Assembly: GCA_934130485.1 (NCBI GenBank)
Contig: CAKOYE010000002.1
Coordinates: 1 to 62,618, forward strand
Reading direction: 5' to 3'
Length of the DNA stretch: 62,618 nt
DNA from: an uncultured Bacilli bacterium
GTDB lineage: Bacteria; Bacillota_I; Bacilli_A; RF39; UBA660
This document shows positions 10,709 through 38,103 of the stretch, piece by piece (within the stretch, counting starts at the first letter, position 1; each line of letters opens with the position of its first letter). The notes beneath the pieces are model-generated. The model was not told the DNA's origin and searched no databases. It saw only the letters and a program-made list of their open reading frames with translations. Position numbers and translations under genes: made by a program.

Positions 10709-10713
10709 CTATA

Positions 10714-11322: not shown

Positions 11323-11429
11323 ATAACACCCCTTATCAGCAACTATATTGAGTATATCATAAAATTCTGTTTTATTTTCTTTAACTTGTATCTTTTTTGC
11401 TTATTCTTTCATTTTTTTATTTTTTTATT

Positions 11430-13253
11430 CTATCCAACTGTATGAATATTGCTAGTAAACGTAGAATCATATGTCCAATTTATTAAATCAGATGATATTA
11501 ATTTAACTTTCGTTGTTGATGAATCCCCCTGACTTAAAGTTATAATATATTCATTGTCTTTTTTTTCTATAAAATCTATATTACTAATATAAACCACTTC
11601 TTTGGGAATTTTATGTGCATATTCAACCCTTTCCCAAAAATTTCCTTTATCTTTTGTTATGTACATATATGGAAATTCATTTTCCTGGTTATTATTAAGT
11701 AAAACAATTCCATTGTTTTCATCATACATTATAAAATCTATCAATGTTTTATTTGTACAATTTTCAGGCAAATCAATACTTTCCCAATCCTTACCACTAT
11801 TTTTAGTCAAATATGCCTTTTTAAATTCACCACTTCCCATAGTCCAATCTGTACCTAATGCAACATATCCAAAATTTTGATCATTAAAACCAACAATTCT
11901 ATGTGTTATATCCTTATATATATCATTATTAATGATATCAAAGATTTTTTCACTCCAAGTAATACCATTATCAGTAGATATCTTTAACTTTGGCTGTTCC
12001 CCATAAAAATATGCGATAGGAATTAATTCATTTACAGAAATAAACCAACTACTGTTTTGAAGTGATATATCTCTATAAAAATTTAGTGTTTCTTTTACTT
12101 GATCAGATGACAAATCAGTTTCAATCCAATTATTTCCATAATCTCTCGTAAAAAGTAATTGATTTTTACCATTTATATAATAATCAGTTTCCATTGTATA
12201 ATCTATTCTTTTGATATCACCATCTACATTATCAAATATATATTTATACATTTCATCAGCAGTAACACTACTGCCATCACTAAGTGTAATAACCAAGTAA
12301 ATACCAGGTGTTATAGTACCACCTTTGCCTGCTTCATAATCATCTAAAGTCAATGCTTTAATTTTCTTATTATCTCTCATATCAAATACATTAGTTACTT
12401 CTGAAAATTTCTGATTAGATTGAATTGAAACTTCATAAAACCTTAAGTTACTTAATTTTATTTGTTCTCTAAAAGGAATTTTTTTAATTTGGTTACTTAA
12501 ATACTTAATGTTTAAACTTTTAAAGTATTCTCTAACTAACATTTTATTGATTGTGCAATCACTTACAGTTTTACAATTCTCTTTTCTTTCATAGCCAAAT
12601 TCTAAATTTTTATCTTTATAGTTATAATAACCGCTACCAACATAATTATAATCATTATCAAAATAATTAACTGCCATATCAATTCTTTTTATATTTCCTT
12701 TTTTGTTTAACTTAATACTTAAGAACACTATATTAGAGTTTAAATTTTTCACTTCTTCAGTCTTAGACATAATACTTATAAATTCGTCTAATCCATCTTT
12801 CTCTAAGTTAGAAGTACCAAATATTCCAATTTCATAATGATTATTTCCTTGTTTTATTATTGATGGATGATAATATTTATATCTTATGATAAGTACTAAA
12901 AACATAATTATAAAAATAGATATTGTTGTAATAGAGATTTTCTTTACTTTTCTTTTTGTTTCATTTTTCTTTTGTATTCTATTTTCTTCTATTATTGCAA
13001 TAGCCTTATCTATTTCCTCTTGAATATTTATTTTTTTATTTTTTCCTCGCTCTCCAAATAGTATTTCAGAAACATCAACATTAAGTTCCAATGCCAGTTT
13101 TTCTAAAATTTTAATATCTGGCAAACTAAGTCCACGTTCCCATTTACTTACTGCTTTATCAGTTACAAATAATCTTTCTCCAAGTTCTTGTTGAGTCAAT
13201 CCTTTTTCTTTTCTAAGAGACGCAATAAATTTACCAATTTTATTATTGTCCAT
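11430..13253 (-). CDS. Membrane-anchored XRE-family HTH regulator with extracytoplasmic BNR/Asp-box repeat domain
   Basis: The N-terminal segment LRKEKGLTQQELGERLFVTDKAVSKWERGLSLPD is a Cro/C1-type HTH. There is one TM (ISITTISIFIIMFLVLII). Four S/T-x-D-x-G-x-x-W boxes are present: TRDYGNNW, STDNGITW, TKNSGKDW, TKDKGNFW. Confidence 0.75.
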   Translation of the reverse strand: MDNNKIGKFIASLRKEKGLTQQELGERLFVTDKAVSKWERGLSLPDIKILEKLALELNVDVSEILFGERGKNKKINIQEEIDKAIAIIEENRIQKKNETKRKVKKISITTISIFIIMFLVLIIRYKYYHPSIIKQGNNHYEIGIFGTSNLEKDGLDEFISIMSKTEEVKNLNSNIVFLSIKLNKKGNIKRIDMAVNYFDNDYNYVGSGYYNYKDKNLEFGYERKENCKTVSDCTINKMLVREYFKSLNIKYLSNQIKKIPFREQIKLSNLRFYEVSIQSNQKFSEVTNVFDMRDNKKIKALTLDDYEAGKGGTITPGIYLVITLSDGSSVTADEMYKYIFDNVDGDIKRIDYTMETDYYINGKNQLLFTRDYGNNWIETDLSSDQVKETLNFYRDISLQNSSWFISVNELIPIAYFYGEQPKLKISTDNGITWSEKIFDIINNDIYKDITHRIVGFNDQNFGYVALGTDWTMGSGEFKKAYLTKNSGKDWESIDLPENCTNKTLIDFIMYDENNGIVLLNNNQENEFPYMYITKDKGNFWERVEYAHKIPKEVVYISNIDFIEKKDNEYIITLSQGDSSTTKVKLISSDLINWTYDSTFTSNIHTVG

Positions 13254-13565
13254 AATCTCTCACCTCACAATAATTATACTACAATATTACTAATTCAGTT
13301 CTCGACTAATAGTTTACCTATTATTTTTTTATTAAAAATTACTTTAGTTTTTATTTACATTATCTTAATATTGGCCACTTAAATAATGTATTATTTGTAT
13401 TGCATCTTTTCCCTATATTTTTTCAAATATTATTCTTAAAATTTTCTACACCTCATATTTTTGTAATACAATTTATTTCTATTTTTTCAATTCTACTTAC
13501 TATTAAAAAACACCTAATATCATTAAATATCCGGATGTTTGTAAAAGCGTACTTTTTCAAATATA

Positions 13566-13913
13566 TTATTTTTTATGCAATCCTAAATCATCACATATAA
13601 TGTTTTTAGAACCTTTAACTTTTTTACATGATAAGATAATTGCTTCGTCATACTTATCTTCTATCCTCAAATCATCGATGTTATAAGTGACATAATATGT
13701 AGTGTCTTTAATTGATTTGAAAAAGGCTGCTTTTCCATTTATACACAATGCGTCCTTTTCAATTTTATTATAATAACAACCATTAATTCCTAAAAAATTT
13801 ATTCCAATTGAACTAAACCAATTTAATTTATATCCAATAAGTAGAGGAACTGCAAGAAAAATAATTATTGATAAAACGCATGTTATAACACTATTATTAC
13901 TATTTTCTTCCAC
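13566..13913 (-). CDS. Small membrane-anchored hypothetical protein
   Basis: 115-aa ORF with a GTG start in the ORF track and one N-terminal TM segment. The start codon is uncertain. Confidence 0.4.
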   Translation of the reverse strand: MEENSNNSVITCVLSIIIFLAVPLLIGYKLNWFSSIGINFLGINGCYYNKIEKDALCINGKAAFFKSIKDTTYYVTYNIDDLRIEDKYDEAIILSCKKVKGSKNIICDDLGLHKK

Positions 13914-14247
13914 ATTTTTATCAGTTTGTTATATGTCAGTTACATCATCATACTTTATTTTCTCTTCTGATATACTGCTATCACCATTTATAATTTTTGA
14001 TACATCTCTTATTTTGTCATTACTTATGATTATTTTATCTTTTTTCCCATTATAAATAAAATTTAAAGTAGTTGACATTCCATTATTATCTTTCTTACTA
14101 ATATATTTAAATTAAAAATCTTTCATATTATCTACATAAATATAACAAATATTATATATATCATTAAAAAACTTTAATTAAGTTATCACTAAAAAATTAA
14201 AATGCCACATAGAGCATTTTCATTACCCAAAAAGTCCATAAAATAAA

Positions 14248-14279
14248 CAAAAATGAGAGCTTTCGCTCCCTTCAGGGGG
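14248..14279. repeat. Candidate attL core, also a minus-strand terminator hairpin
   Basis: The sequence is CAAAAATGAGAGC-tttc-GCTCCCTTCAGGGGG. It shares the 12-nt AAAAATGAGAGC and the CTTCAGGGGG block with 25596..25638. On the minus strand it forms a GNRA-looped hairpin followed by a T-run. Confidence 0.5.
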
Positions 14280-14384
14280 CTCGTCCTTTTATTCTTTGTA
14301 TGTGTTAATTCCTTTTAACTTCGGCCTTTTATGGAATTTTTATTTTAGTAATAACCTTATTAATTTGGTATTTATTAGTCTGTT

Positions 14385-14404
14385 GGTACCTAAATGGTAC
14401 CTAA
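14385..14404. promoter_or_regulatory. Tandem GGTACCTAA sites (candidate integrase arm-type sites, P' arm)
   Basis: GGTACCTAAATGGTACCTAA differs at one position from 25528..25547 (GGTACCTAATTGGTACCTAA). Confidence 0.45.
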
Positions 14405-14441
14405 AAATGGAAAACCCCAGATTAACTCCAGGGCATTTTTA

Positions 14442-14567
14442 CTACTTTCTTCTATTAGAAAGAGCACTTCCAGCTACACTTTTAGTTGCTTTTGTTGTAG
14501 CTTTACTTCTAAGTTGACTACTTGCCTTTTTTGCAACTGACTTAGAAGTCCTTATTTTATTTGCCAT
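14442..14567 (-). CDS. Small basic protein (41 aa)
   Basis: MANKIRTSKSVAKKASSQLRSKATTKATKSVAGSALSNRRK, preceded by GAAAGGAGAG 7 nt upstream. The longer 91-aa version in the ORF track has no SD. Confidence 0.4.
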   Translation of the reverse strand: MANKIRTSKSVAKKASSQLRSKATTKATKSVAGSALSNRRK

Positions 14568-14895
14568 TCCTAACTCTCCTTTCTTAGCCAAGATTTTCGT
14601 TTGACAATAAGAAAGGTTACTACAATAAAGACATCTTGCTATTAAGACAATAATCCTATATAATAGTATTGTAATAATAAGTTGTTTATTTATTGCTGTG
14701 CATTGGGTGTGGCACATAAATTAGCCTTTCTTTATTGTTCAAAGAATGGCTTTTTTTGTGCAAAAAACAACATTAAACCGTTGTATTTTTAGCACACCTT
14801 AATTATAGCATCTTATTGCTTATTTTACCATAATTAACTTGACTTTTTTTATTATTTAAGTGATTAATACTACAGCTTGAAAGGAGAATAAAAAT

Positions 14896-15141
14896 ATGAT
14901 TAATAATATAGTATTAACAGGATACTTCATTGGATTTGAAAATAATAATCTATTGCTAAAAATTGATAGTTGTGAAAATCATCAAATAGTAAAAATACTG
15001 ATTAACAAGTTAATAAGAAAGGAGATAAAGAAAAGATTCAAAGTTAATGATTTGATTGGTATAAAAGGATACATAGAAATTGATGATAATAATAAAGCAA
15101 TAATAATAGCAACTAATATTTCGTTTTTAAGTAATAAATAA
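14896..15141 (+). CDS. Small OB-fold/SSB-like protein (tentative)
   Basis: 81 aa with AAGGAGA upstream. The N-terminus MINNIVLTGYFIG resembles the SSB start (N-V-L-G-L). The protein is otherwise unassigned. Confidence 0.35.
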   Translation: MINNIVLTGYFIGFENNNLLLKIDSCENHQIVKILINKLIRKEIKKRFKVNDLIGIKGYIEIDDNNKAIIIATNISFLSNK

Positions 15142-15170
15142 AAAAGCCTAGATAAAATTCCAAGCTTCTT

Positions 15171-15920
15171 TTATTTGTAGTTATTAACTATATATGTTAA
15201 TCTATCTATTATTTTTTTGTCTAAAACTTCTTTATTCAAGCTATCAATCATCAACTTACCACTACACATATTCATTGACTTTATCATTTCTATAAATTGA
15301 GTTCTTGATAGATTAGTATTATTGTTTTCTTCAAAAGATTTTATATTATATAGAAAACTTCTTAATAAAAATCTATTATTAGAAAAATTACTACCAAATA
15401 AAGGAAAACCTTTACCATTAAAATCTTTTGATAAATATTCAGTTAATTCATAGTGATTATTCTCGTTAGTTTCATCGTAAGTTAATCTTCCAATCCACCA
15501 TAACCTAGCTAATCCATTAGTCATAAGTGACCTTTTTTCGCCATGCGCAAAGAAATAATTCTTCTTTATATATTTTGCTTTATCTGACGCCTTATCAACA
15601 GGCCATCTTTTTTGCATATAATTCCAAAATATATCATGACACAAGCCAGCCCATAACCTTTCATCGCTAGCTTGACTATCCGTTAATTTTTGCATATTTG
15701 AATATATGATTTTAATATTCTCTAAATCATCTTTTTCAGGATTATCTGAAATGATTAAATCAAAATCTGGAAATTCATATTTAAAATCAATAAAATTATT
15801 ATTATCACTTGTAACCTCTTTTATCCAAAGTGTATTAGCCGAAGAATAATTATCAACATTATCTTTAATTGAATCTTTTAAGATATACAATGAATCATTT
15901 TTCAAAAATCTTATTTTCAT
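15171..15920 (-). CDS. Hypothetical protein, last gene of the candidate defence operon
   Basis: 249 aa with an AGGAGG SD. Only 1 nt separates it from the upstream stop. Trp-rich conserved-looking blocks (ERLWAGLCHDIFWNYM, GLARLWWIGRL). I could not assign a family. Confidence 0.6.
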   Translation of the reverse strand: MKIRFLKNDSLYILKDSIKDNVDNYSSANTLWIKEVTSDNNNFIDFKYEFPDFDLIISDNPEKDDLENIKIIYSNMQKLTDSQASDERLWAGLCHDIFWNYMQKRWPVDKASDKAKYIKKNYFFAHGEKRSLMTNGLARLWWIGRLTYDETNENNHYELTEYLSKDFNGKGFPLFGSNFSNNRFLLRSFLYNIKSFEENNNTNLSRTQFIEMIKSMNMCSGKLMIDSLNKEVLDKKIIDRLTYIVNNYK

Positions 15921-15921
15921 A

Positions 15922-16791
15922 CTAATTACCTCCTATTGATAACAAATTCTTCAATGACATTTCCATTGGACATTCAATGATTTCTTGTGCTAGTGAAAAA
16001 GAATCTTGATTTTTTAATTCATCATAATCAAACTTTTTATTTAATGTATCAAATTTTTTTGATAATGCTTTAAACCATCTTTTATCTTCATATGTATAGA
16101 ATGTTTCTATATCACTTTTTAAAATATCAAAAACATGAGTCAAAGCAGGAATAATAATCATTGAATGGAGTATTGGTGTATAATCTGAAATTCCCCTACC
16201 TAATTCAGAATAGTTTTGATAATCATTTTTTTGAAGTCTTACCCTTATTTTATTATTATCATCCATATCAATATATATCTTGTGATCTGTTTCGCTGGTA
16301 TAAGGTACAATTGAAATTATTGAAGGAACGTTAGATAAATCATAAATGTTTTTTTCAACGGGAATATCTGGTTGATTTGAAATAGCTAAAACTGATCCTA
16401 TTTCAACATCGAATTTAGATGTTCCATAATCTGGATTAAATGATTTGGAATAATAACCTGATATATTTTCATTCGCCACAATGAATGCTACTATTTGTAA
16501 TTGTTCATTAATATCTGCATTAGGTATTTCGAAATCATTTTCTCCTATAATCAAATCTTTTATATATCTTAACTTTGTTTTCTGACATTCAAAATGACAA
16601 ACAATTTTAGCCTTATTAGTATCAATCAACGAAAGTAATTCATTGTTATTCAAATCACAATTGATATTAAGTAACAAGTTTTTTGTTTTCTTAAAAGCTT
16701 TTACTCTTATATTAAAACTACTATTTATATAATCATCATACATTGCAGACAGTACTGGATATGAATATAATCTACTGCTTTTAATTTTCAT
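15922..16791 (-). CDS. Hypothetical protein of the candidate defence operon
   Basis: 289 aa with a GGAGG SD. Its start overlaps the GHKL ATPase gene by 11 nt, suggesting translational coupling. Confidence 0.6.
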   Translation of the reverse strand: MKIKSSRLYSYPVLSAMYDDYINSSFNIRVKAFKKTKNLLLNINCDLNNNELLSLIDTNKAKIVCHFECQKTKLRYIKDLIIGENDFEIPNADINEQLQIVAFIVANENISGYYSKSFNPDYGTSKFDVEIGSVLAISNQPDIPVEKNIYDLSNVPSIISIVPYTSETDHKIYIDMDDNNKIRVRLQKNDYQNYSELGRGISDYTPILHSMIIIPALTHVFDILKSDIETFYTYEDKRWFKALSKKFDTLNKKFDYDELKNQDSFSLAQEIIECPMEMSLKNLLSIGGN

Positions 16792-18733
16792 ATACTTTTA
16801 CCTCCAATGCCCAATTTTCTGTTTCTTTTAAAGTAAATTGTATTCTTTTTGGTTCATTTTTATTTACCTTACCAACTTCTATTATATTTCCATTGAATTT
16901 TACACCTGAGCCAGAGAATAGTCTTCTTTCTCCACACGCTTCTATTATTTCTGGTTTATAATTTACTAATTCTCCTGCTATTTCTACTGTTATCTTAGCA
17001 TTTTGTAAATCTATTGGAGAAACAAACATAAACTCATATTTCCCATTTGTATACATACATCTACTCTTAGTTGTAAGGACATTTTTTCCTGAAGGAACAT
17101 TTATAGTTCCCTTATCATTATTTGCAGATCCAGGAGTACCTTTTCCACCATCACTTTCATTTGGATCTCCTTGGCCATAATTTCCCTCTTCTTCTCCATA
17201 AGCATACGCTTGTCCTCCAGCAGAATCATCATCTTGATTTTCATCTTCAATATTTATATTATCATTTTTTACAATTGGTTTTTCTTTTACTTCTATTTCT
17301 TCCAATATATCATCTACGATATTTTCAGTTGATTCATTATTTGATCCGTCATCAAATTCATCTGGCAGAAACTCTCCTACTCCCTCTGCATCCATTGATT
17401 CAGGTATAGAGCTTTCAACGTATTTTCTAATAGTAGCTCTAACAAAATCAAATAATTTATTATATTCTTTTCTCGCTGTCTTTTCATCATCCATCTTCGA
17501 AGGATACCATTCATCATGTTTTGGATTCTCCATTTGCCTAAAGTATGCATTTACTTCCTTACCTACTAATTTCAATACGCCGCAATAAAATGAAATCTGT
17601 GGAAGTTTATCTTTATCAAATATTTTCATTCCTGTCCCTTTAATAATACCAACTCTATTTTTAAAATTTGGATCAAAGGCTATATCAAAAGATACATCAT
17701 CAGGATCGAACATAGAAAATGTTTCGTGCTTTGTTTCATACTTATCACTAACTAATATATCAAAGTAGTCAATTGTATATTGATTAAACATATCAGAATT
17801 ATTACTATAAATATAACCAAATCTTTCAGAAATAGTTTTATTATTTAATTCCAAATCATTTATTTTAACAATAAGTTTTTTATCTAAAATTGAAACAAAA
17901 TAATTATCAATAATAGAAGCAGCTACATCAATAACCCATCCCTCATTGTCATCATCAGGTATTTCATTACTTTTATTTCTATCATCAAAACCTAAAATAT
18001 ATATATCTGTTCCAGATTCTTTTCTATCATCAAAAGATGGATCTATGAATAATTGTTCATTCATACTATCCAATCTAATTCCAAATTCTGTATTTTTTAT
18101 TACACCATAATATCCTGTCCCTTGGGTAATATTACCATCATCAAGCTCACAAGATGATAATTTTGAAACTCCCTGTGATGCAACAAGCCCTTTTTCATCT
18201 AAGGTACTATAAAATACTGTATGTAATTTGGAGCAGGCAAAAGCAGCATTTTTACCTATACCAAAAGAACCTCCTGATGTTGTTGGATTATCAGAAAAAC
18301 CCTCACTTTTAACTAATCTATCCCACTTTGAATCTATTTCTCTATCACTACCTGTTAATCCACTTGTATTAAAATCGCTAACGCGAAGACATAATAATTC
18401 ATCACTTTCTAAAAGTTTTTTTGCTTCTGAATAAAAATTAATTGGTGTCTTATCATTTTTATAATATTTCTTAGCATATTCAATTTCCTTATCAAGGATA
18501 TCCGAAAAAATTTTTTTACCCATAATTTCTTCTTTTTTTAAACGGAAACTTCTAAAAACAACGGTAACCGGATCATTATTTGTATCTTTCTTTGCATCTA
18601 ACGAATTTTGACATATTTCTCTAGCTAAAGACAATAACGTATCATCATTAAAGAATTGTATTCCTGATTCATTAAATCCTGTTTTCTTTCCACCACCTGT
18701 AGTAGGAAAAGACCAATTTACTTCATTATTCAT
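16781..18733 (-). CDS. GHKL-superfamily ATPase (sacsin/MORC-like HATPase) with acidic linker and C-terminal beta-rich domain
   Basis: 650 aa. N-box is AREICQNSLDA (E...N..DA). The G1-like motif is VSDFNTSGLTG. The G2 box GGSFGIGKNAAFACS resembles the sacsin-type GxFGxGF motif. An acidic low-complexity stretch spans about aa 455-540. An AGGGGG SD is present. Confidence 0.7.
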   Translation of the reverse strand: MNNEVNWSFPTTGGGKKTGFNESGIQFFNDDTLLSLAREICQNSLDAKKDTNNDPVTVVFRSFRLKKEEIMGKKIFSDILDKEIEYAKKYYKNDKTPINFYSEAKKLLESDELLCLRVSDFNTSGLTGSDREIDSKWDRLVKSEGFSDNPTTSGGSFGIGKNAAFACSKLHTVFYSTLDEKGLVASQGVSKLSSCELDDGNITQGTGYYGVIKNTEFGIRLDSMNEQLFIDPSFDDRKESGTDIYILGFDDRNKSNEIPDDDNEGWVIDVAASIIDNYFVSILDKKLIVKINDLELNNKTISERFGYIYSNNSDMFNQYTIDYFDILVSDKYETKHETFSMFDPDDVSFDIAFDPNFKNRVGIIKGTGMKIFDKDKLPQISFYCGVLKLVGKEVNAYFRQMENPKHDEWYPSKMDDEKTARKEYNKLFDFVRATIRKYVESSIPESMDAEGVGEFLPDEFDDGSNNESTENIVDDILEEIEVKEKPIVKNDNINIEDENQDDDSAGGQAYAYGEEEGNYGQGDPNESDGGKGTPGSANNDKGTINVPSGKNVLTTKSRCMYTNGKYEFMFVSPIDLQNAKITVEIAGELVNYKPEIIEACGERRLFSGSGVKFNGNIIEVGKVNKNEPKRIQFTLKETENWALEVKVYEN

Positions 18734-18737
18734 GGAA

Positions 18738-18962
18738 CTACCCCCTAAGTGAAAATTCTTTCTTTCTAGATTTAGCTTCAGAAAATTTCATTTTTGTATT
18801 TCTTAGTTCTTGTTCAATAGCGGAAAATATTTTTTTTACTTCCTCATCCGTATAATCATAATTTGATTTATTAGAACAATTTCCAAGCAATTTAAGTGTA
18901 CTTATTATCTTGTTAGTTCTATTCTCAGCTATCTTTATAAACCTTTCTCTTTTTTGATTCAT
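18738..18962 (-). CDS. Small helical protein (74 aa), first gene of the ATPase sub-operon
   Basis: MNQKRERFIKIAENRTNKII..., with GAGGTGA upstream. The stop lies 4 nt before the ATPase start. Confidence 0.5.
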   Translation of the reverse strand: MNQKRERFIKIAENRTNKIISTLKLLGNCSNKSNYDYTDEEVKKIFSAIEQELRNTKMKFSEAKSRKKEFSLRG

Positions 18963-19094
18963 AGAAATCACCTCGCATATAAAATAACACATTTTTGAAA
19001 TATTTGCAATATATTTCTCAAATATTGTTAATTATCTGTAATATATATTTAATACATTTTTCACATATTGTGTAAAAAGCAAATAAAAAGAGCA

Positions 19095-20255
19095 TTAAAT
19101 TGCTCCATTGTCGTCTGTTGTTTTAATTGATACTTTATATGATGTTGGTGTGATATCAAAAGTATCATATAAGCTTGCATCAACAACATAACCTTTTGTT
19201 TTTTTACCATTTTTATATATTCTGTATAGTTTATAATTATCAGGATGATTTTTTGCAAATTCCAATTCATTGCTAGACATTTCAAAGTCAGATGTTAAAG
19301 ATGAACTTGTGCTCTTTACTTCTATATATATTTCTTTTACACTACCATTTTCTATTTCAAATGATTGAATATCATATCCAAAGCCATCACCAGAATCTCT
19401 TGATATCCATTTTATTTTTTCGGCCAGATCTGATCTACCCAATTCAATAAGTTTGTTTTTCTCATATTCATATACTAAAGCCTCTCCAACATAACCATTA
19501 TCTAATTTCTTTTTATAATCATTAACATATGATTCAAAATCACTTTTTCTGATATACACCTTATCAGAATTATTCTTTCTCTTGGTTTTTGTAGGTATAT
19601 CGAAAGACATTTCTAATGAAACTTCCTCATCATCTATAGCTGGTTTTTCTGTTTCCTCTGTTAATATTTTAGATACTTTTTCTTCTTCTATATCTATTTC
19701 ATTTTTATTATTAGTTTCTTCAATTGTATCTTCTATAGGTTCATCATTATTTTTTAGATATAGTCTAGTAACTCCATCTGTAACAACAAAATTTATTTCG
19801 TCTTTATAACTGTCTTTATGTGAAACAAAATTTCTAATAATTTGTTCAATTTTCATTTCGCCTGGTCTTGTTTTACTTTCTAATTGATCTGCTTCCGTAA
19901 GTTTTCCATCTAAAATATTTAATAAGGATTTTTGAATTGTTGTAATATCAATACCTGGAAATTCTTTGATTAACTGAAAAACATACTCTTTTATCTCGCG
20001 TTCACCCGTAATCTTATTTCTCCAAAGGCCTGAATTAAATGATTGTGTTTCAAATAAATCTTCTTTGCCAAGATAGTTTTTATATTCCGAACAATGTTCT
20101 TGTAATCGAGCTCTAACTTGGGCTTCTAAAGCTTCATCTTGATCACAATTTCTGATTCTTGATACTTCTTCATATATCTCTGATAATTGTGCATATTTAG
20201 ATCCTTTTTTTGATGTAAGAATATTATTAATTGCAATAACTATATCATTTTTCAT
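19095..20255 (-). CDS. DUF3883-like PD-(D/E)xK nuclease-fold protein with N-terminal winged-helix-like regions
   Basis: 386 aa. The C-terminal segment reads GYVGEALVYEYEKNKL...GFGYDIQSFE...IYIEVKSTSS...FEMSSNELEFA...YKLYRIY, giving an E / D / ExK arrangement typical of DUF3883 (the NO VEIN C-terminal domain). An AGGAGG SD is present. Confidence 0.65.
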   Translation of the reverse strand: MKNDIVIAINNILTSKKGSKYAQLSEIYEEVSRIRNCDQDEALEAQVRARLQEHCSEYKNYLGKEDLFETQSFNSGLWRNKITGEREIKEYVFQLIKEFPGIDITTIQKSLLNILDGKLTEADQLESKTRPGEMKIEQIIRNFVSHKDSYKDEINFVVTDGVTRLYLKNNDEPIEDTIEETNNKNEIDIEEEKVSKILTEETEKPAIDDEEVSLEMSFDIPTKTKRKNNSDKVYIRKSDFESYVNDYKKKLDNGYVGEALVYEYEKNKLIELGRSDLAEKIKWISRDSGDGFGYDIQSFEIENGSVKEIYIEVKSTSSSLTSDFEMSSNELEFAKNHPDNYKLYRIYKNGKKTKGYVVDASLYDTFDITPTSYKVSIKTTDDNGAI

Positions 20256-20263
20256 AGTACCTC

Positions 20264-21382
20264 CTAAATATCATAATTTGTAATCAATAAGTGTTCTACT
20301 TTTTTATCATTTCTGTTCATAAAACTTACTAAATATTTCTTATCAAATGATCTAATGTTAAATCCACAATTTTTATACAACGAATAAATAAAATCCGTAT
20401 TTTTAATTACAAGCATAAATTTTGCTTTAGTATTTTTTAGATAATTTGCCAACCTTATTTGATCATCTTTATCAAAATCATTTTTTGCATAAGTAGAAAA
20501 TTCTGTATCATATGGAGGATCTAAAAACATAAAATCATTTTCTGTCAATTCAACTTTATCACAAAATTTTTCAAAATCATAACAATATATTTTTGTATTA
20601 CCCATGTAACTCTTTAAACTTTCAGATGATAAATATTCTATTTTTTTATTAAAGTCTTTTCTGTTATAGCTAATTCCGCCATATGGAACATTGAATTCTC
20701 CATTTGCATTATATCTAAACATTGCAGCATAGCAGTAATCTCTTATAAAATAAAAGACTGCGCAATAAAATTCATCACTTAATTTTAATTTTTTTCGGTT
20801 GTTATATAAATATCTAAAATACATATAATATGCGCTCTTAAATGCAGTTTCAATGTTAGCCATGATATCAGTATCAGACATCTTACCTTTTTGAGTTTCT
20901 ATTTTAAGCATTCTAGATATCTTTGACTTAAGGTTTTTATTAAATTCTATATTCAAATTATATAAATTAATATCAACTTCATCTCTTAATAGTTTATCAA
21001 ATTCTTTCGAGTGAGATTTCATAAAAACGTTTATCAGTTCATTTAGAGAGTCATTATCATTCTTGTACTTAGAATAAAGATTCAATAATTCATTATAATT
21101 TTTTTCGACTATTTCTTGAAGAAAAATCCAATTCTTATTAATTTCGTTTAACGATTTAAAAAATTCTGGACTACCTTTTTTTATTAATTTATATAAAAGA
21201 ATTAATTCATCAGATTTATCATTAATAACAGAATTAGAGCAATCAACATTTAAATAAACAGCTCCACCACCCACAAATGGTTCCACATATCTGCTAAATT
21301 CTTTAGGTAAATTTTCTTTTATAATTGGCCATTCTTTTTCTTTACCACCAGCCCATTTTATAAATGGTTTTCTATTTATCAT
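20264..21382 (-). CDS. Dam-family (D12 class) N6-adenine DNA methyltransferase with enlarged middle region
   Basis: Contains IKWAGGKEKEW, motif I EPFVGGGAVYL and motif IV FLDPPYDTEF. The 372-aa length exceeds the ~280 aa typical of Dam. An AGGAGGG SD is present. Confidence 0.85.
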   Translation of the reverse strand: MINRKPFIKWAGGKEKEWPIIKENLPKEFSRYVEPFVGGGAVYLNVDCSNSVINDKSDELILLYKLIKKGSPEFFKSLNEINKNWIFLQEIVEKNYNELLNLYSKYKNDNDSLNELINVFMKSHSKEFDKLLRDEVDINLYNLNIEFNKNLKSKISRMLKIETQKGKMSDTDIMANIETAFKSAYYMYFRYLYNNRKKLKLSDEFYCAVFYFIRDYCYAAMFRYNANGEFNVPYGGISYNRKDFNKKIEYLSSESLKSYMGNTKIYCYDFEKFCDKVELTENDFMFLDPPYDTEFSTYAKNDFDKDDQIRLANYLKNTKAKFMLVIKNTDFIYSLYKNCGFNIRSFDKKYLVSFMNRNDKKVEHLLITNYDI

Positions 21383-21532
21383 ATTTTGCCCTCCTGTTAA
21401 TAATCTTCTACTAATAATTATACCATTAAACTAACATTTTTCCTACAAAAGTAAACATAATTTGTTTATTTTTAATAACTACTTGTAATATTTTTGATAA
21501 AGAGTTATTAATACAACAGTTTGGAGGTAAAT

Positions 21533-21856
21533 ATGTTTAGGAAAACTGTTAACGGTGATATTACTGATGAAGATTTTAAAAAAATTCTTATTCCGTTTAA
21601 TGATAATTATGATGAATTTTTAGAAGATTATATTATGCCTGAAGTAATAGCTTTTTATATTGCAAATTCATTCTATCGTGATGCAATGTGGAAAGGTAGC
21701 TTTAAGCAACATTATAATTCTGCTGCTGATATAATTAACTACTTTGATGAAGATTATGAAAAAGTTAAAGTCGATGTTATCAATTTATTAAAAATAAAAT
21801 ATGCATTAGAAATAATTAGCGAAGATCCACTCATTCTTAAAACAACGAAATATTAG
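21533..21856 (+). CDS. Acidic hypothetical protein divergent from the methylase
   Basis: ORF 21521..21856. The ATG at 21533 follows GGAGGTAAAT. A palindromic terminator (TTAGCAATTGCTAA plus a T-run) lies downstream. Confidence 0.5.
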   Translation: MFRKTVNGDITDEDFKKILIPFNDNYDEFLEDYIMPEVIAFYIANSFYRDAMWKGSFKQHYNSAADIINYFDEDYEKVKVDVINLLKIKYALEIISEDPLILKTTKY

Positions 21857-22157
21857 CAATTGCTAATCTTTTTTATTGTAGTAGTAATAGTACAATAAAA
21901 TATATTCTTTATTCTTTTCTTATTCTTATCCATATCCTTATCCTTTATCCTTATCCTAGGAGGTCAATCATTTCGTTTGGTTTTGTTTTGATTTGAATTT
22001 GATTTAGAAATGATTTTGTCTTTGTTTAATATTGATTTTATTTTGATTATCTCTATTTTTTCCAAAAAACTCACGGAAAATTTATGATTGTGTGAATTTG
22101 GGTGGCTGGTCGGTCTTGAAATTAATCTTATAATTCTATCTTTCCATCCGGGGGTAT

Positions 22158-22412
22158 CTATTTATGTAATGCTAAAATATCTTTTAAATAATTTAGATCT
22201 ATACTAAAATATTTTAATACTTCCACCATAGGTACTAATCCTCTATTTCTAAGTTTTGTGTTATCACTGTATAATGCTAATGATATTTCACTTCTAATTG
22301 CATATGCCTTATTTCTTCCTACACTACCTAGCATCATTATATCTTTTGCAGTAGCCCATTGACTTGATGCAATTTCTAATATTTGTTCAGCATTTAATTT
22401 TTCACTATTCAT
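22158..22412 (-). CDS. Small DNA-binding protein, excisionase/DUF3173-like (tentative)
   Basis: 84 aa from the ATG at 22412, with AAGGGA upstream. The pattern TAKDIMMLGSVGRNKAYAIRSEI...LVPMVEVLKYFSID resembles small HTH proteins found next to ICE/IME integrases. It is divergent from int. Confidence 0.45.
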   Translation of the reverse strand: MNSEKLNAEQILEIASSQWATAKDIMMLGSVGRNKAYAIRSEISLALYSDNTKLRNRGLVPMVEVLKYFSIDLNYLKDILALHK

Positions 22413-22521
22413 TTTCTCATCCCTTTCTATTATTAATTTGAAGTGTGCTAAACTTTTAAAAAATAATTGTAATAAATATATACTGTAATTTTTTAAATAA
22501 TAAAAGTATATTTTATATATA

Positions 22522-22627
22522 ACTATAGTCACTATAGCATACTTTTAACTGTCATTTACTATCATCTTACTAGCAATTACTATCACTTAACTATCATTTA
22601 CTATCATTCTACTATCAATTACTATCA
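22522..22627. repeat. Array of ~10 ACTATCA-type 7-mers phased at 10-11 bp
   Basis: ACTATCA starts at 22558, 22579, 22590, 22600, 22611 and 22621. Degenerate copies are ACTATAG at 22522 and 22532, ACTGTCA at 22548, and ACTAGCA at 22569. Confidence 0.8.
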
Positions 22628-22894
22628 ACTTGCTCTTATTTGGTTGATTTTAGTTTTTTTTGTGATATATTGATTACAGTCAGATAGATACAAACTATTT
22701 GATTAAGTTTCTAAAGTATGCTAACATTACAACACACTTGTAAAAGCATATAAAAAGATCTACTGTTGGCGCAGCAGATCAAATAGAAACACAAATTAAA
22801 AGTTTAGCACAACTTTAACATTTTAATAATGTAATTGGGTTTCCATTTACATTATATCACTATGCTTTTATTCATACAAGGAGATGATGATATA

Positions 22895-24007
22895 ATGGGA
22901 GTTTATAAAGCAAAATCTGAAAAAACTAAAGATGGCCGTGTCTGGTTTTTTAGAGTCAGATATCAAGATATAGATGGTAGAAATGCACAGTATAAGTCTG
23001 GAAAATTTGCTACTAAAAAAGAAGCAGAAGATGCAGAACTTGAATTTAGGTTAAAAATACATAGACATGAGAATATGGATAAAATAACCTTAGATGAAAT
23101 GATTGATATATTCATCGAGAATAGAACTTCTACTATTGAGGTTAAGCCTACTACTCTATATAATTATGGTAATAAAAGAATCCATTTAAAAAGTTTATTA
23201 AATATCAAACTAAAAGATTTTAATATTAATCACTATGATAATTGGAAAAAGCAAATGAATGAAACTAATATTTCAACAAGATATAAAAATGACATATTAA
23301 AATTTCTAAAATCAGTATTAAACTTTGCTATGACTTGGTATGATTTTAATATTAATAAAGTTTATAATAAAATGACTAAGTTTAGTAATGCTTCTGATAT
23401 ACCAAAAGAAATGATGTATTTTACATATGATCAATGGAAACAATTTATTTCTGTTGAAACTAATTTACAAAGTAAAGTTATGTTTGAAATATTATATTAT
23501 TGTGGTTTAAGAAAAGGTGAACTTAGAGGATTGACTTGGAAAAATATTGATCTTGTTAATAAAACCTTATCTGTTAAAAAGCAAATTACAGATCGTGGTG
23601 GTTCAGTTAAAGAGTTCCAATTTTCCACTTCAAAGACTAAAAGTAGTATAAGAAGCCTGCCTCTTAACAAAGTACTCTTAAACGACCTTAAAATGCTCAA
23701 AAATGAGGTATCTAAAGAGTATGGATTCAATGATGATTACTTTGTTATTGGTGATGCTTTCCCTGTTGCAAGTAATACTATTACATCAAGAAAAAATCGC
23801 AACTGTAAATTAGCTAATGTACCTCAAATTAGGATCCATGATTTCAGACACTCCTGTGCATCCCTACTTGTTAATAACGAGGCTAATATAACTGTTGTAG
23901 CTAAATATCTAGGTCACACTAAAATAGAAGAAACATTAAATACTTATACACATCTATTCAATTCTACATTAAATGAAGTTGTCGATTTAATTGATAAGTT
24001 AGAGTAA
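22895..24007 (+). CDS. Tyrosine-type site-specific integrase with N-terminal arm-binding (AP2-like) domain
   Basis: ATG at 22895 follows AAGGAGA. The N-terminus is MGVYKAKSEKTKDGRVWFFRVRYQD. The catalytic region has GLRKGELRGLTW, IRIHDFRHSCASLL and LGHTKIEETLNTYTH (R..HxxR..H..Y). Confidence 0.85.
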   Translation: MGVYKAKSEKTKDGRVWFFRVRYQDIDGRNAQYKSGKFATKKEAEDAELEFRLKIHRHENMDKITLDEMIDIFIENRTSTIEVKPTTLYNYGNKRIHLKSLLNIKLKDFNINHYDNWKKQMNETNISTRYKNDILKFLKSVLNFAMTWYDFNINKVYNKMTKFSNASDIPKEMMYFTYDQWKQFISVETNLQSKVMFEILYYCGLRKGELRGLTWKNIDLVNKTLSVKKQITDRGGSVKEFQFSTSKTKSSIRSLPLNKVLLNDLKMLKNEVSKEYGFNDDYFVIGDAFPVASNTITSRKNRNCKLANVPQIRIHDFRHSCASLLVNNEANITVVAKYLGHTKIEETLNTYTHLFNSTLNEVVDLIDKLE

Positions 24008-24067
24008 AATAAAAGCTAGGAAAATACCCCAGCTATTTTGCTTATTTAAAATATAAAAGATCACCAA

Positions 24068-25045
24068 TTATATAGATTCAATATCAAAAGCATAATCATA
24101 ACTAATTTTATCAAAAAATTCTGGAGACATAAACGCTTTCTCTTTATGAGAAAAATCTACTATATCTTTTGAACCAAATTTTTTAAATTTTTCTTTAACT
24201 TGTTTCAAAATTTTTAATTCTTCTTCATCAAATATTGACGGATCAAATTCTTTATTTGCACTTATATTATGGCTTTCATATTGATTATTATATTCTATTT
24301 TATACTCAATCAAGTTTTCTTTTGAACATTCATTTAAAATAGATTCAAATTGATCTGGAACTGGCCCAAATTGTAATTTTGCATACTCTAGTCCTGTTAT
24401 TGATTTGCACGTATTTTTATAATACAAAAAATCAGTATAGAACATTTCCTTTAATAATTTTGTTTTTAATACAGTTTGATTTGCAAAATATAGAATCATG
24501 TTATAAATTTTTTCTTTTGAGAGTTTTGAATATCCGTTATACTCATTTGGAATATATTCACTATCGAAAATCAATTGTTTAGTATTATTTGGTAAAAAAG
24601 CAGCTATTTTTTCATTTATTTTATTAAATTCTTTTTCAGTAAATTGTTCTTTGTTTGCATCAATTATTGTTTTTATAGTTTCTGGCTTTGATAACAAACT
24701 TCTTAATATTATTAAATAACTATCGTTTGGAATTGATTTACCTTTTTCATAACTTATCAGTGTTTTTTTTGCACACCCTATTATTTTAGCAAATAATTCT
24801 TGTGATAAATTAAATCTATTTCTTAAATCTACAATCTCTTCTTTTGTAATTCCATACTCCTCATTATATTTATGAATTGCAATCTCAGACGCTCTATTAT
24901 CTAAATCAGAATCATATACTAAGCTATTACATGATTTACAAAAACGTCTTTTTGCAATAAATGAAATATTCTTACCTTTAATATTATAATTATGCTCATA
25001 ATCTTTTATATAAGTTTCTTGACTTTTACAAATATCACATCTCAT
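24068..25045 (-). CDS. Composite antitoxin: MqsA-like zinc-ribbon plus XRE HTH fused to a SocA/Panacea (DUF4065)-like domain
   Basis: ATG at 25045 follows AAGGAGAG. The CDIC...CKSC zinc ribbon is followed by the HTH LSQELFAKIIGCAKKTLISYEKG. The C-terminal segment LLKEMFYTDFLYYK..TGLEYAKLQFGPVP fits the DUF4065 pattern. Confidence 0.65.
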   Translation of the reverse strand: MRCDICKSQETYIKDYEHNYNIKGKNISFIAKRRFCKSCNSLVYDSDLDNRASEIAIHKYNEEYGITKEEIVDLRNRFNLSQELFAKIIGCAKKTLISYEKGKSIPNDSYLIILRSLLSKPETIKTIIDANKEQFTEKEFNKINEKIAAFLPNNTKQLIFDSEYIPNEYNGYSKLSKEKIYNMILYFANQTVLKTKLLKEMFYTDFLYYKNTCKSITGLEYAKLQFGPVPDQFESILNECSKENLIEYKIEYNNQYESHNISANKEFDPSIFDEEELKILKQVKEKFKKFGSKDIVDFSHKEKAFMSPEFFDKISYDYAFDIESI

Positions 25046-25058
25046 AATCACACTCTCC

Positions 25059-25415
25059 TTAATTGTGATCAATATGGAAAGATAAACATACTGTTGCGTC
25101 ATTATTATTATATTCTTCTATTTTTATCTTTATATACACTTTACACCCATTTATCATTTTTTTGAATGTAAGCGCATCATCTGAACGTTTTGCATAAAAT
25201 GGTTTATAATCATGTACATAATTTTGAGCAGATAAAGTAAGTATCTCACTCCAAGCCATTTCTTCAGTTATTCCAATATCTAATAATTCTTGGATATAAT
25301 CACGATCTTTTCGACTAGCGAATCTTTTATATCCTTGATTGATTAATTTTTTCATTCTTGATAATTGTTTTAATTGTTCGCTCATCATCATCATCATTAA
25401 GCTGTCACCACTCAT
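25059..25415 (-). CDS. MqsR-like type II toxin (tentative)
   Basis: About 108-118 aa; the start is ambiguous within a run of ATGs. The C-terminus ...GCKVYIKIKIEEYNNNDATVCLSFHIDHN resembles the MqsR-family terminal beta strands. It lies 13 nt upstream of the MqsA-like antitoxin. Confidence 0.5.
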   Translation of the reverse strand: MSGDSLMMMMMSEQLKQLSRMKKLINQGYKRFASRKDRDYIQELLDIGITEEMAWSEILTLSAQNYVHDYKPFYAKRSDDALTFKKMINGCKVYIKIKIEEYNNNDATVCLSFHIDHN

Positions 25416-25527
25416 TTCTAATTACGCAATTCTCTTTTCCATTTAATCCTTTCATTCATTTAAATGGTAACATATGTAACCTATTTTGTCAATATACTTT
25501 AAATACATTTTCTGATTTTTAGAAAAT

Positions 25528-25547
25528 GGTACCTAATTGGTACCTAA
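25528..25547. promoter_or_regulatory. Tandem GGTACCTAA sites (candidate integrase arm-type sites, P arm)
   Basis: GGTACCTAATTGGTACCTAA lies 50 nt inside the right-end repeat. Confidence 0.45.
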
Positions 25548-25595
25548 TCCTATTTTTAGATAATTATCAAATCAGGAAAACCTTTATATTCCCTA

Positions 25596-25638
25596 CAAAA
25601 AATGAGAGCGACATAAGTTAATCGCTCTCTTCAGGGGG
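25596..25638. repeat. Candidate attR core, overlapping the recG terminator
   Basis: The sequence is CAAAAAATGAGAGC-gacataagttaatc-GCTCTCTTCAGGGGG. Confidence 0.5.
25597..25629 (-). terminator. Rho-independent terminator downstream of recG
   Basis: On the minus strand, GAGAGCGA-ttaacttatg-TCGCTCTC forms an 8-bp stem followed by ATTTTTT. Confidence 0.6.
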
Positions 25639-25745
25639 TTTGGTTATACTCTCACATTAAAAACCGTAAGAGCAATCGCGTGAACTACTATCACGCTATA
25701 GTAATAATACACTAAAAATCATTAAAAGTCAACTTTATAATTTTA

Positions 25746-27743
25746 TTAATCAAGTCCATTAGAACTATATAGTAATTCTTTTAATTTATTTGTTTTTATA
25801 TCAGAATATAAATCAATATTTTTTAAATATTCATCACTATCACTTTTTGCCCTTAGCAAAATATCATAATCATTTTTAATATTTGCCAATTTAAAATTCA
25901 TATCACCACTTTGTCTAACACCAAATAAGTCACCACTACCACGGAGTTTAAAATCCTCCTCACTGATTTTAAATCCGTCATTAGTTTCAGTTAAAATTTT
26001 TAATCTTTCTGTATTCTTATTACTAATTAAAATACAATATGATTGTAAACTATTTCTTCCCACTCTACCACGAAGTTGATGAATAGCTGACAACCCAAAT
26101 CTATAACTATCAAAAATAACCATCATAGTTGCATTTTTTACATCTACTCCAACTTCAATTACAGTAGTACTAACTAAAATTTGAACAATATTTTTTTCAA
26201 ATTTTTCCATTACTTCTTCTTTTTCCTGTGCAGTCATTTTTCCATGTAACATACCAACATTATATATTTTACCAAAAGCCTTATTCATTTTTTCATACAA
26301 TTCATTAATATTTTCTAAACTAATTTTATCACTTTCTTCAATTAGAGGCGCTATCACATATACTTGATGACCATCTTTTAATTGTTCATACATCATATTT
26401 AAAACTTCTTTTATTTGATTATCATTTTTTAAATATGTAATAATTTCTTTTCTACCAGATGGTAATGTTTTTATACTTGAGATATCCATATCACCATATA
26501 TAGTAAGTGCGTATGTTCTTGGAATTGGTGTTGCACTCATATATAAAACATCAGGAACAAATCCTTTGTTTTTTAAACTTGCTCGTTGATTAACGCCAAA
26601 TCTATGCTGTTCATCAGTAATAACTAATCCTAGATTATTATATTTTACATCATCTGTAAATAAGGCATGTGTACCTATAACTACATCAATTTCACCATTT
26701 TGTAATTTTTCATAAATTATTTTTTTATCTTTTGATTTTAGTTTTCCAGTAAGTAAAGATACATTAATATTGTATTTTTCAAATAGCTTTTTAACATTTT
26801 CAAAATGTTGAGTAGCTAATATTTCAGTTGGTGCCATTAAAGCACTTTGATATCCACCTAAGTAATTTATATACATAGAAATTATTGCTAATATAGTTTT
26901 ACCACTTCCAACATCACCTTGTATAAGTCTATTCATTCTTTTTTCACTAATTAAATCATTATATATTTCATCAACGCATTTTTCTTGATCAGGTGTTAGT
27001 TTAAAGCTTAGATTTGAAATAAATTCATTAATCTTATTTTTATCTACAATTCTTTTTAACCCAAATTGAAAATTATTTTTTAGTTTTAAGTAATTAATCT
27101 TTAACATAAACAAAAATAATTCTTCATACTTAAGTCTATATAAGGCACGCTTTAACGCATCAATATTATTGGGTATATGGCATATTTTAATCGCATCATT
27201 TTTATTTATTAAATTATATTTTTTTATATATTCATCGGGTACATAATCAAATATAAAAATATTATTTTTTAATGATTCCAAAATATAACTATGTATTTTA
27301 TTAGAACTAATGCTATAATTTGCGTGATATATTGGTTCAATTTGTGGAGTGTCAGGTAATTTACAAAATTTTATGTCACTAGCTATTATAGTATTATGCT
27401 TCAAATCAAATTTTCCTATAATGGTTATATCTCCACCTACCAAAATATTCTTTTTTAAAAAGCCTCGATTATATATAATAACTGTGATAATTTTATTTCC
27501 AATATTAATTTTAAATGTCATTTTATCACGTCTTTTTCCAAAGAAAAAAACAGTTGGAATACTATAAACAGTTCCATCTAATACTACATTATCACCATTC
27601 TGTATTAAAGATAAATCACTTCTTTTTAAAATATTATATCTAAAAGGATAATATGAAATCAAAGATTCCATATCATATATTCCTAATTTGTTTAAATATG
27701 TAATAGTTTTTGGACCAATACCACTAATTTTATCTAATTCCAT
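25746..27743 (-). CDS. recG: ATP-dependent DNA helicase RecG
   Basis: Start MELDKISGIGPKT...YYPFRY after AGGTGGA; an alternative ATG lies at 27761. Walker A is GDVGSGKT, DEAH-type box is ITDEQHRFG, and motif VI is QLRGRVGR. The wedge-domain spacing is typical of RecG. Confidence 0.9.
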   Translation of the reverse strand: MELDKISGIGPKTITYLNKLGIYDMESLISYYPFRYNILKRSDLSLIQNGDNVVLDGTVYSIPTVFFFGKRRDKMTFKINIGNKIITVIIYNRGFLKKNILVGGDITIIGKFDLKHNTIIASDIKFCKLPDTPQIEPIYHANYSISSNKIHSYILESLKNNIFIFDYVPDEYIKKYNLINKNDAIKICHIPNNIDALKRALYRLKYEELFLFMLKINYLKLKNNFQFGLKRIVDKNKINEFISNLSFKLTPDQEKCVDEIYNDLISEKRMNRLIQGDVGSGKTILAIISMYINYLGGYQSALMAPTEILATQHFENVKKLFEKYNINVSLLTGKLKSKDKKIIYEKLQNGEIDVVIGTHALFTDDVKYNNLGLVITDEQHRFGVNQRASLKNKGFVPDVLYMSATPIPRTYALTIYGDMDISSIKTLPSGRKEIITYLKNDNQIKEVLNMMYEQLKDGHQVYVIAPLIEESDKISLENINELYEKMNKAFGKIYNVGMLHGKMTAQEKEEVMEKFEKNIVQILVSTTVIEVGVDVKNATMMVIFDSYRFGLSAIHQLRGRVGRNSLQSYCILISNKNTERLKILTETNDGFKISEEDFKLRGSGDLFGVRQSGDMNFKLANIKNDYDILLRAKSDSDEYLKNIDLYSDIKTNKLKELLYSSNGLD

Positions 27744-27868
27744 ATATCCACCTACAATCATTTATATTTTAGCAAACTTTTGTTCGATAATCAATATTTT
27801 TTAAAATTATTTAATTTTTTTATCAAAAAAATATTGACTTTTTTCGCATTTTCGATTAGTATATACAG

Positions 27869-38082: not shown

Positions 38083-38103
38083 CTAATCGCCCCAATCTAT
38101 AAC

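Follow-up and report, generated by a model that had tools for sequence, protein, structure and literature searches.

Mobile elements with lambda-type tyrosine integrases reportedly insert in the 3' ends of tRNA and tmRNA genes, restoring them, and defence islands and integration hotspots are said to gather anti-phage systems. Enterobacterial prophages also integrate in small RNA (sRNA) genes, at the ryeB/SdsR locus of Salmonella and at ryeE/CyaR of E. coli (PMC3603311), and integrative mobilisable elements (IMEs), cis-mobilisable elements (CIMEs) and tandem accretion are known in Firmicutes (PMC5704250). The stretch analysed here (the window) comprises 62,618 nucleotides (62.6 kb) of contig CAKOYE010000002.1 of an uncultured Bacilli bacterium (RF39; UBA660), in which a preliminary description had noticed an integrative island beside recG. 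Its junctions were compared with 50 related loci, which carry labels from L001 to L051. Lambda-type site-specific integration at the 3' end of a predicted RNA gene next to recG, here called RNA-1, very probably explains window positions 14280-25628 as a whole.

The island resembles the elements that target tRNA and tmRNA genes in several respects: its integrase combines an arm-binding N-domain with a catalytic domain, each end has an identical copy of a short core with arm-type repeats further in, the element brings its own substitute for the 3' portion of the RNA gene, and one RNA gene is the hotspot for many element types. It differs from them in that the target is neither a tRNA nor a tmRNA and belongs to a family without a description, and in that only the terminator is restored and no part of the mature RNA body. 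As in defence-island hotspots, a single locus holds defence cargo that varies across strains; unlike in those known so far, the hotspot mechanism is visible here at base resolution, as one 10-bp core with cognate arm repeats for each integrase type. With the ryeB and ryeE prophage sites the locus shares the use of a non-tRNA small RNA gene with a terminal hairpin as attachment site (attB) and hotspot, but the phylum is another one (uncultured low-GC gut Bacilli), the RNA is unrelated, and most occupants are small defence islands or mobilisable elements, not full prophages. Siblings with an integrase, a Mob_Pre relaxase and an AAA_25 protein are reminiscent of IMEs, the att-flanked units without integrase in L045 and L003 (unit 1) of CIMEs, and the tandem arrays at the site, which have a common internal att site, of accretion (PMC5704250). 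The window island itself is unlike an IME in lacking a relaxase or recognisable oriT, and unlike a CIME in having an integrase. Novelty lies in the specific target, an RNA family that Rfam lacks, and in the clarity with which the hotspot is resolved; as a concept, the island itself is not new.

The left end of the island reads CAAAAATGAGAGC-tttc-GCTCCCTTCAGGGGG (14248-14279) and the right end CAAAAAATGAGAGC-gacataagttaatc-GCTCTCTTCAGGGGG (25596-25638). These ends, both hairpin repeats and the tandem pairs inside them, as given in the preliminary description, were all recovered and are found nowhere else in the window. At one mismatch or fewer, CTTCAGGGGG occurs only at 14270-14279 and 25629-25638, two sites in 62.6 kb against 0.22 expected, a count reached in none of 100 shuffles. 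Its companion AAAAATGAGAGC is also confined to the two island ends within the window and is weak alone, since 18 of 100 shuffles reach two copies. The proposal that this split repeat is the att site is upheld for the 10-bp CTTCAGGGGG half, which is evidently the recombination core and reads CCCCCTGAAG on the minus strand, but not for the AAAAATGAGAGC half, which is the 3' side of two different terminators, a mere resemblance lying outside the crossover.

The identical core at the two junctions coincides with the limits of strain-variable DNA. Related contigs were sampled on the recG side through the neighbouring glycosyltransferase gene and the common recG allele, and on the far side through two left-flank proteins, which together yielded ~30 further contigs of the same species. 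L001, a same-species metagenome-assembled genome that is ~98% identical across recG, matches the window as far as 25629, beyond which it has another terminator, other short repeats, another integrase and a Mob_Pre relaxase. The loci with other elements on this side (L001, L032-L041, L051) are 98-99% identical to the window until 25629 and then diverge; the exceptions are the own-type elements L011 and, more distantly, L032, in which similarity reaches 25595. On the far side, eight same-species contigs with four other gene sets were compared at the left flank. The sets are type I restriction-modification (RM) with nSTAND3 (L014, L016, L025, L031), type I RM with GmrSD (L024, L027, L029), a UvrD-like set (L021), and DpnII RM with AAA_22 (L015), the last with a window-type arm, so that similarity continues past the core. 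In the first seven of these contigs, the left flank is shared with the window from 14279-14280, where the distal core starts.

L038 and L014 belong to a single contig, in which another whole island, ~17.5 kb long, lies between the same pair of cores. For this reason the limits of the window island are set at 14280 and 25628, which enclose 11,349 bp flanked by a 10-bp direct repeat, and the earlier claim of a site-specific integrative island with att-type direct repeats is borne out by base-precise junctions in related loci. Since CCCCCTGAAA remains at the proximal junction of some elements, and the distal junctions have no common sequence upstream of the C-run, strand exchange would take place within CCCCCTGAA(G). 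The core and the first half of the next terminator stem also form a dyad, GCCCCC-TGAA-GGGAGC in the minus-strand reading, which is called as a plus-strand hairpin at both ends (14265-14280 and 25624-25639). It could represent a pair of core-type integrase-binding half-sites, and its element side is not kept in all types. GC content is ~25% all along the window, so composition is uninformative as an island signal.

The 110 nt from the recG stop to the right hairpin are not spacer but are occupied by a promoter and an RNA. From 25697 to ~25597 on the minus strand, a separately promoted RNA gene of ~100 nt, RNA-1, is predicted, in which the order is promoter, AGCGUGAUAGUAGUUCACGC...CUCUUACGGUUUUUAAUGUGAGAG...AACCAAACCCCCUGAAG, hairpin (Table 1). 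The same unit lies 3' of recG in L002, L003, L004, L005, L042, L043, L045, L048 and L050, whose RecG proteins are 60-77% identical, and a promoter resembling the consensus TTGACw-N17-TAtaAT stands at the same distance in all ten species. In the 10-species alignment, 98% of the cells of stem P2 are paired and four pairs are double-compensated, values that none of 500 shuffles reached, and slid-partner controls pair in just 24-61%; stem P1 is essentially invariant and hence without covariation. The whole transcript folds with z = -6.8, and a covariance model built from the alignment finds one copy per locus at 64-82 bits (82 in the window) and nothing else in 472 kb. RNA-1 is read as an RNA gene because of its promoter, covarying stem, fold score and single copy per locus, and it is presumably expressed and functional.

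Rfam 15 gave no match to RNA-1 at the gathering threshold and none overlapping it at E<=10, and four other species likewise had no match at the gathering threshold. The sole match in 25500-25800, rli38 at 25500-25576 (E=2.8), is at chance level and lies outside RNA-1. ARAGORN found no tRNA or tmRNA in the window, which rules out either as attB, and literature searches on integrases, attB and small-RNA genes brought up no report of RNA-1 or of its attachment site. recG has no terminator of its own before RNA-1, and the right hairpin is therefore also the first terminator after recG. The preliminary description, which had the island inserted into the recG terminator, was right to that extent, but the target is the 3' end of a separate RNA gene.

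A second conserved sRNA-like unit, which is not in Rfam, lies divergently upstream of recG at ~27834-27962 (+), and occurs also in L002, L004, L006, L042, L043, L045, L048 and L050. It consists of a TTGACT-17-TAGTAT promoter (27834-27862), two hairpins, the first of which covaries, a C-rich CAACCCCUUUUUAUUC and a terminator. The loop of this terminator is CUUCAGGGGG in L004, L006 and L048 and UCUCAGGGGG in L045 and L050, in these five species the complement of the RNA-1 tail and att core CCCCCUGAAG; in the species of the window it is UUAAUCCGG. The transcript predicted for the unit has ~95 nt (~27868 to 27962).

Both end hairpins score as minus-strand intrinsic terminators, at 14270-14255 and 25629-25604. 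The distal hairpin is identical behind every element type in the species, and is for that reason regarded as the native terminator of RNA-1, while each element type has an intrinsic terminator of its own directly after the proximal core CCCCCTGAA (Table 1). The suggestion that the island rebuilds a terminator on insertion is thus confirmed, the left hairpin being native and the right one island-borne. In most element types a motif, TTATAAGG(G/A)TTT or ATATAAAGGTTTT, is present 10-30 nt past the proximal terminator (window ~25575-25590 on the minus strand, L001, L032, L033, L038, L043 and L050, the last of which otherwise seems unoccupied), and it could be a core-proximal site of protein binding.

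The tyrosine integrase of the island has a catalytic domain (PF00589, E=3.3e-27; phrog_1, E=4e-68) in which the R...HxxR...H...Y motifs were recognised by eye as GLRKGE, HDFRHS, LGHTK and TYTH, and an N-terminal Arm-DNA-bind_4 domain (PF14657; 33.4 bits against a cut-off of 22.3). Exact copies of GGTACCTAA number four in the window, all within the two tandem pairs at 14385-14404 and 25528-25547. Every element type at the site has its own tandem repeat with a period of 11-12 bp, lying 46-100 nt inward of the proximal core and ~100-140 nt inward of the distal one (Table 1), and further pairs named in sibling elements are GGTCCAA and CTACCCATCA. The repeats match between both ends of one type in the window, L038/L014, L051/L021, the L045 mini-element and L003 unit 1. 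Their sequence tracks the N-terminal 75 aa of the integrase: L001 and L033, 92% identical in this region, have AGATACCA in common, the frameshifted window-type integrase of L015 is accompanied by the same repeat as in the window, and integrases that are <=50% identical have differing repeats. These observations support the view that the tandem pairs behave as expected of arm-type sites cognate to the integrase N-domain, and the arm-type reading first proposed for the GGTACCTAA pairs probably holds, given the other elements' own repeats at equivalent positions.

Integration would then proceed by recombination of an element attachment site (attP) with the chromosomal attB, formed by the last 10 nt of the RNA-1 body immediately downstream of recG. 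The N-domain of the integrase would bind the TTAGGTACCA tandem pairs on both arms while its catalytic domain acts on the core, the protein bridging arm and core sites by analogy with other arm-binding tyrosine integrases, and the crossover would fall inside the 10-bp CCCCCTGAAG. Insertion would part the RNA body from its own terminator, now at 14248-14270; RNA-1 and the read-through from recG would still be terminated, because the island brings a replacement terminator directly after the core. The site is a hotspot at which many unrelated or distant elements of the same core specificity replace one another or stack, and anti-phage defence and addiction are the likely roles of the cargo (PDC-M33 A/B/C, the methyltransferase with NOV_C, MqsR/MqsA-SocA). 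The predicted junctions are ...AATAAAAGGACGAG-CCCCCTGAAG-AGAGCGATTAACTTATGTCGCTCTCATTTTTTGTAGGG for attP and ...GAGAGTATAACCAAA-CCCCCTGAAG-GGAGCGAAAGCTCTCATTTTTGTTTATTTTATGG for the repaired attB, and the predicted insert-free junction is ...AACCAAA-CCCCCTGAAG joined to GGAGCGAAAGCTCTCATTTTTG.

At least seven types of repeat and integrase occupy the site in this species, plus one decayed remnant. The elements of L001, L033, L035, L036, L039, L040 and L051 carry an integrase, a Mob_Pre relaxase and an AAA_25 protein and are true IMEs; L032, L038 and L046 have a CI-like repressor, with phage replication-organiser genes also in L032 and L038. The window-type backbone of integrase, 84-aa and 107-aa genes recurs with other cargo, as in L011, where the toxin-antitoxin module is replaced, and in L015, where PDC-M33 is replaced by DpnII RM and an AAA_22 protein. 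Across strains the defence cargo includes PDC-M33, type I and II RM, GmrSD, nSTAND3, HEPN, AbiE, radical-SAM and toxin-antitoxin genes. L037 has an L033-type end and no integrase within the ~7.6 kb fetched downstream. In L018 (7568-8821) and L030 (4977-6230), both from one sample, the window-type island has received an IS110-family transposase, which sits between the DUF6339 gene and the region of the distal arm. Samples that contain the window island include ERZ28613649, ERZ27318505 and ERR7366242.

Two derivatives fit the definition of a CIME. In L045 (5135-6698), a 1.6-kb att-flanked unit has both cores and both TTAGGTGGCA x2 pairs, a single 415-aa gene without a Pfam match and no integrase, and is followed by the TTACATACGAA repeats of the L046 element type. 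L003 has two stacked units, the first of which (12548-16262) has window-like repeats and no integrase and contains a 587-aa gene and a full-length tyrosyl-tRNA synthetase gene, tyrS (14818-16119); this is an aminoacyl-tRNA synthetase riding on a CIME-like element.

Profile searches confirmed the gene content first read from the window island, with an integrase, a toxin-antitoxin pair, a defence operon and, among the ORFs scanned, no phage structural or conjugation genes. PADLOC matches PDC-M33 A, B and C (E = 9e-169, 1.9e-83 and 4.3e-80) over the full length of three adjacent genes, which appear to form a complete candidate defence system; no paper naming PDC-M33 was found in the literature. 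The 84-aa protein had been labelled xis-like, a label that Pfam (E<=1), PHROGs, a PDB sequence search and a fold search did not confirm, the sequence searches giving no match; a likeness to EF-hands came from non-significant Foldseek matches to a low-confidence, single-sequence AlphaFold model (pLDDT 64) and was disregarded. A small gene of 107-108 aa is called in L012, L015, L032, L038 and L051 at the position of the 107-111-aa gene. DNA across this region is 71.6-73.5% similar to L038 and L032, and homology to the other siblings is suggested by size and position.

No relaxase family was found among the island ORFs in Pfam, PADLOC or PHROGs, so the window island is not demonstrably an IME, and it is not a CIME because its integrase is intact. 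The earlier remark that it might be mobilisable is accordingly not supported by a relaxase of its own, though siblings at the same site carry Mob_Pre relaxases; its DNA has no similarity to a Mob_Pre sibling outside int, and a cryptic oriT is possible. Classification as a prophage or a PICI-like phage satellite was rejected, as neither structural or packaging genes nor a repressor with a replication or primase module were found in it. The element is best called an integrative defence island.

Table 1. Predicted features of the RNA-1 site and the window island, with the terminators and repeats of sibling elements (positions refer to the window).
Feature	Position	Strand	Details
recG	25746-27761	-	
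RNA-1 promoter	25732-25704	-	TTGACT-17 nt-TATTAT; score 10/12; -35 hexamer 14 nt past recG stop
RNA-1 body	25697-25629	-	stem P1 GCGUGA/UCACGC; stem P2 ~9-10 bp; single-stranded tail AACCAAACCCCCUGAAG
Proximal (RNA-side) core CCCCCTGAAG	25629-25638	-	last 10 nt of RNA body; chromosome/island junction
Island-borne terminator	25597-25628	-	AGAGCGA-ttaacttatg-TCGCTCT + U-run; differs in every element type at the site
Proximal arm-type repeat	25528-25547	-	TTAGGTACCA x2, 11-bp period
MqsR-like toxin gene	25059-25415	-	below Pfam cut-off; promoter-like site 25492-25464 upstream
Antitoxin-like gene	24068-25102	-	MqsA zinc-ribbon + HTH_3 + SocA/Panacea; module swapped for other cargo in L011
Tyrosine integrase	22895-24007	+	370 aa from ATG 22895 (ORF opens 22835); PF00589 + Arm-DNA-bind_4
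84-aa backbone protein	22158-22412	-	39% identical to small protein at same position in L001 mobilisable element
Backbone protein, 107-111 aa	21521-21856	+	small gene (107-108 aa) at equivalent position in siblings
Dam-type N6-adenine methyltransferase	20264-21382	-	
NOV_C-domain protein	19095-20255	-	PDC-S36 / PD-T4-1-like
PDC-M33 candidate defence operon	15171-18733	-	A 16781-18733; B 15922-16791; C/DUF6339 15171-15920
Distal arm-type repeat	14385-14404	-	TTAGGTACCA x2, 11-bp period; ~106 bp inside distal core
Distal core CCCCCTGAAG	14270-14279	-	island/chromosome junction
Native RNA-1 terminator	14248-14270	-	GGGAGC-gaaa-GCUCUC + U-run; displaced 11.35 kb by insertion
Terminator after core, window/L011			AGAGCGA...TCGCTCT
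Terminator after core, L032			AGAGCA...TGCTCT
Terminator after core, L001			TTCCCTC-gaaa-GAGGGAA
Terminator after core, L033			TTCCCCTC-gaga-GAGGGGAA
Terminator after core, L038			GAGCC-gaaa-GGCTC
Repeat, window/L011/L015			TTAGGTACCA x2
Repeat, L032			TTAGGTACAA x2
Repeat, L001/L033			AGATACCA x3
Repeat, L038 (proximal) + L014 (distal)			TGGTCCAA x2 and GGTCTCA / GGTCTGA
Repeat, L051 (proximal) + L021 (distal)			CTACCCAKCA x2
Repeat, L024			TTAGGTACGTAA / TTAGATGCGTAA
Repeat, L003			TAGTACCTAA / TTAGGTACTAA
Repeat, L045 mini-element, both ends			TTAGGTGGCA x2
Repeat, L046			TTACATACGAA x2

Several results weigh against site-specific integration as the source of the present island. No unoccupied attB was found in the species of the window among at least 14 sampled contexts, which came from a metagenome scan with the 3' part of the RNA (one locus, occupied) and from exact-protein lookups of the left-flank genes, the gene upstream of recG and the common recG allele (all occupied or remnant). 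L034 and L041 were rejected as empty sites, having another terminator, AbiEi with a truncated AbiEii and no second core; they represent an AbiE remnant of ~1 kb with a deletion that reaches window position 9040. The insert-free site proposed as a check was thus not found in the same species, and it is replacement polymorphism that defines the boundaries; in other species, L002, L004, L043 and L050 look unoccupied, the 0.4-2.9 kb covered there containing neither a tandem repeat nor a second core or an integrase. Neither the predicted attP, by which the excised circle would have been recognised, nor any other circular junction or extra copy of RNA-1 was found in viral contigs, and no recombination directionality factor was identified by Pfam, PHROGs, PDB or fold searches. 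Islands could also be replaced by homologous recombination in the conserved flanks, without current integrase activity. Taken further, the island would be a fixed, immobile remnant whose integrase is a relic, and diversity would arise as DNA brought in by transformation or transduction recombines homologously at the conserved flanks (recG and the RNA, and opposite them the 115-aa and 607-aa genes). This is rather unlikely, although the lack of an empty site or circle agrees with it, as do the decayed variants (the frameshift in L015, the missing integrase in L037, the L034/L041 remnants, the IS110 insertions in L018 and L030) and the cargo modules swapped in the otherwise identical backbones of L011 and L015. 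Opposed to it are the window integrase, which is full length with both domains and may still be active, and the junctions of many unrelated elements on one 10-bp core, each element with cognate repeats at both ends and its own terminator; the shared core, cognate repeats and own terminators require independent site-specific insertions at some point. Neither process excludes the other.

The nature and extent of the target allow other readings as well. It is quite unlikely that the conserved sequence between recG and the core is a DNA-level recombination or regulatory site, or a cis-acting leader or attenuator, instead of an RNA gene: P1 never varies and so offers no covariation, and no Rfam family is known, but the consensus promoter at a fixed distance in 10/10 species and the compensatory changes that keep P2 paired favour an RNA. 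For a leader in particular, the genes downstream are unrelated between species and the elements always bring a terminator directly after the tail, both of which fit a stand-alone terminated transcript better. A larger mobile unit, in which 9041-14248 is an older decayed element stacked beside the island or the chromosomal flank starts only at 9040, is very unlikely. L034 and L041 lack window 9041-25628 with similarity resuming at 9040, and tandem stacking at the site does occur in L003 and L045; yet no core, tandem repeat or integrase is found near 9040, 9041-14248 is intact beside at least four other element types, which end at 14279, and the single core of L034 and L041 fits a deletion that took the distal junction. 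That the hairpin repeats are dispersed REP-like or terminator copies, present at both ends by coincidence, is extremely improbable: both do look like ordinary terminators with similar stems, and the AAAAATGAGAGC half alone is statistically unremarkable, but the core occurs just twice in 62.6 kb, the covariance model detects a single RNA at each locus and no other match, and the core is exactly where many different elements have their junctions. Counts of the motifs, together with the search by covariance model, thereby dispose of the dispersed element against which the preliminary description had cautioned.

Elsewhere in the window, the left flank at 9041-14248 is strain-variable and contains a collagen-like fragment, a kinase-like gene, NT5C, a gene for a 607-aa HTH membrane protein and the 115-aa gene. 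A glmS ribozyme/riboswitch is present at 55049-55192 (+), with 81 bits against a gathering score of 37. The segment at ~35138-46510, in a cluster of cell-wall glycosyltransferase genes, is variable and partly duplicated: a single 2-kb piece of L001 is matched both by window positions 35853-37782 and by 45081-47010, and 37283-38082 matches a stretch of L032, L034 and L037 which aligns to ~46.5-47.3 kb as well. In several strains the cluster contains an IS110-family transposase.

Lambda-type integration at the 3' end of RNA-1 gives a base-resolution view of how a defence-island hotspot is assembled in a poorly known, uncultured gut lineage. It also yields several matched sets of integrase, arm site and attB, which are candidates for orthogonal recombination tools in low-GC Firmicutes, and flags two conserved, unannotated small RNAs flanking recG for transcriptome searches. 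A more speculative and on balance doubtful proposal is that RNA-1 represents a new, functionally important small RNA family, whose invariant tail CCCCCUGAAG would serve both as seed and as crossover site and for which the divergent RNA would be a possible partner. If this were true, recG would be bracketed by an interacting sRNA pair, and the 10 nt under the strongest constraint in one of its members would be where mobile elements have converged.

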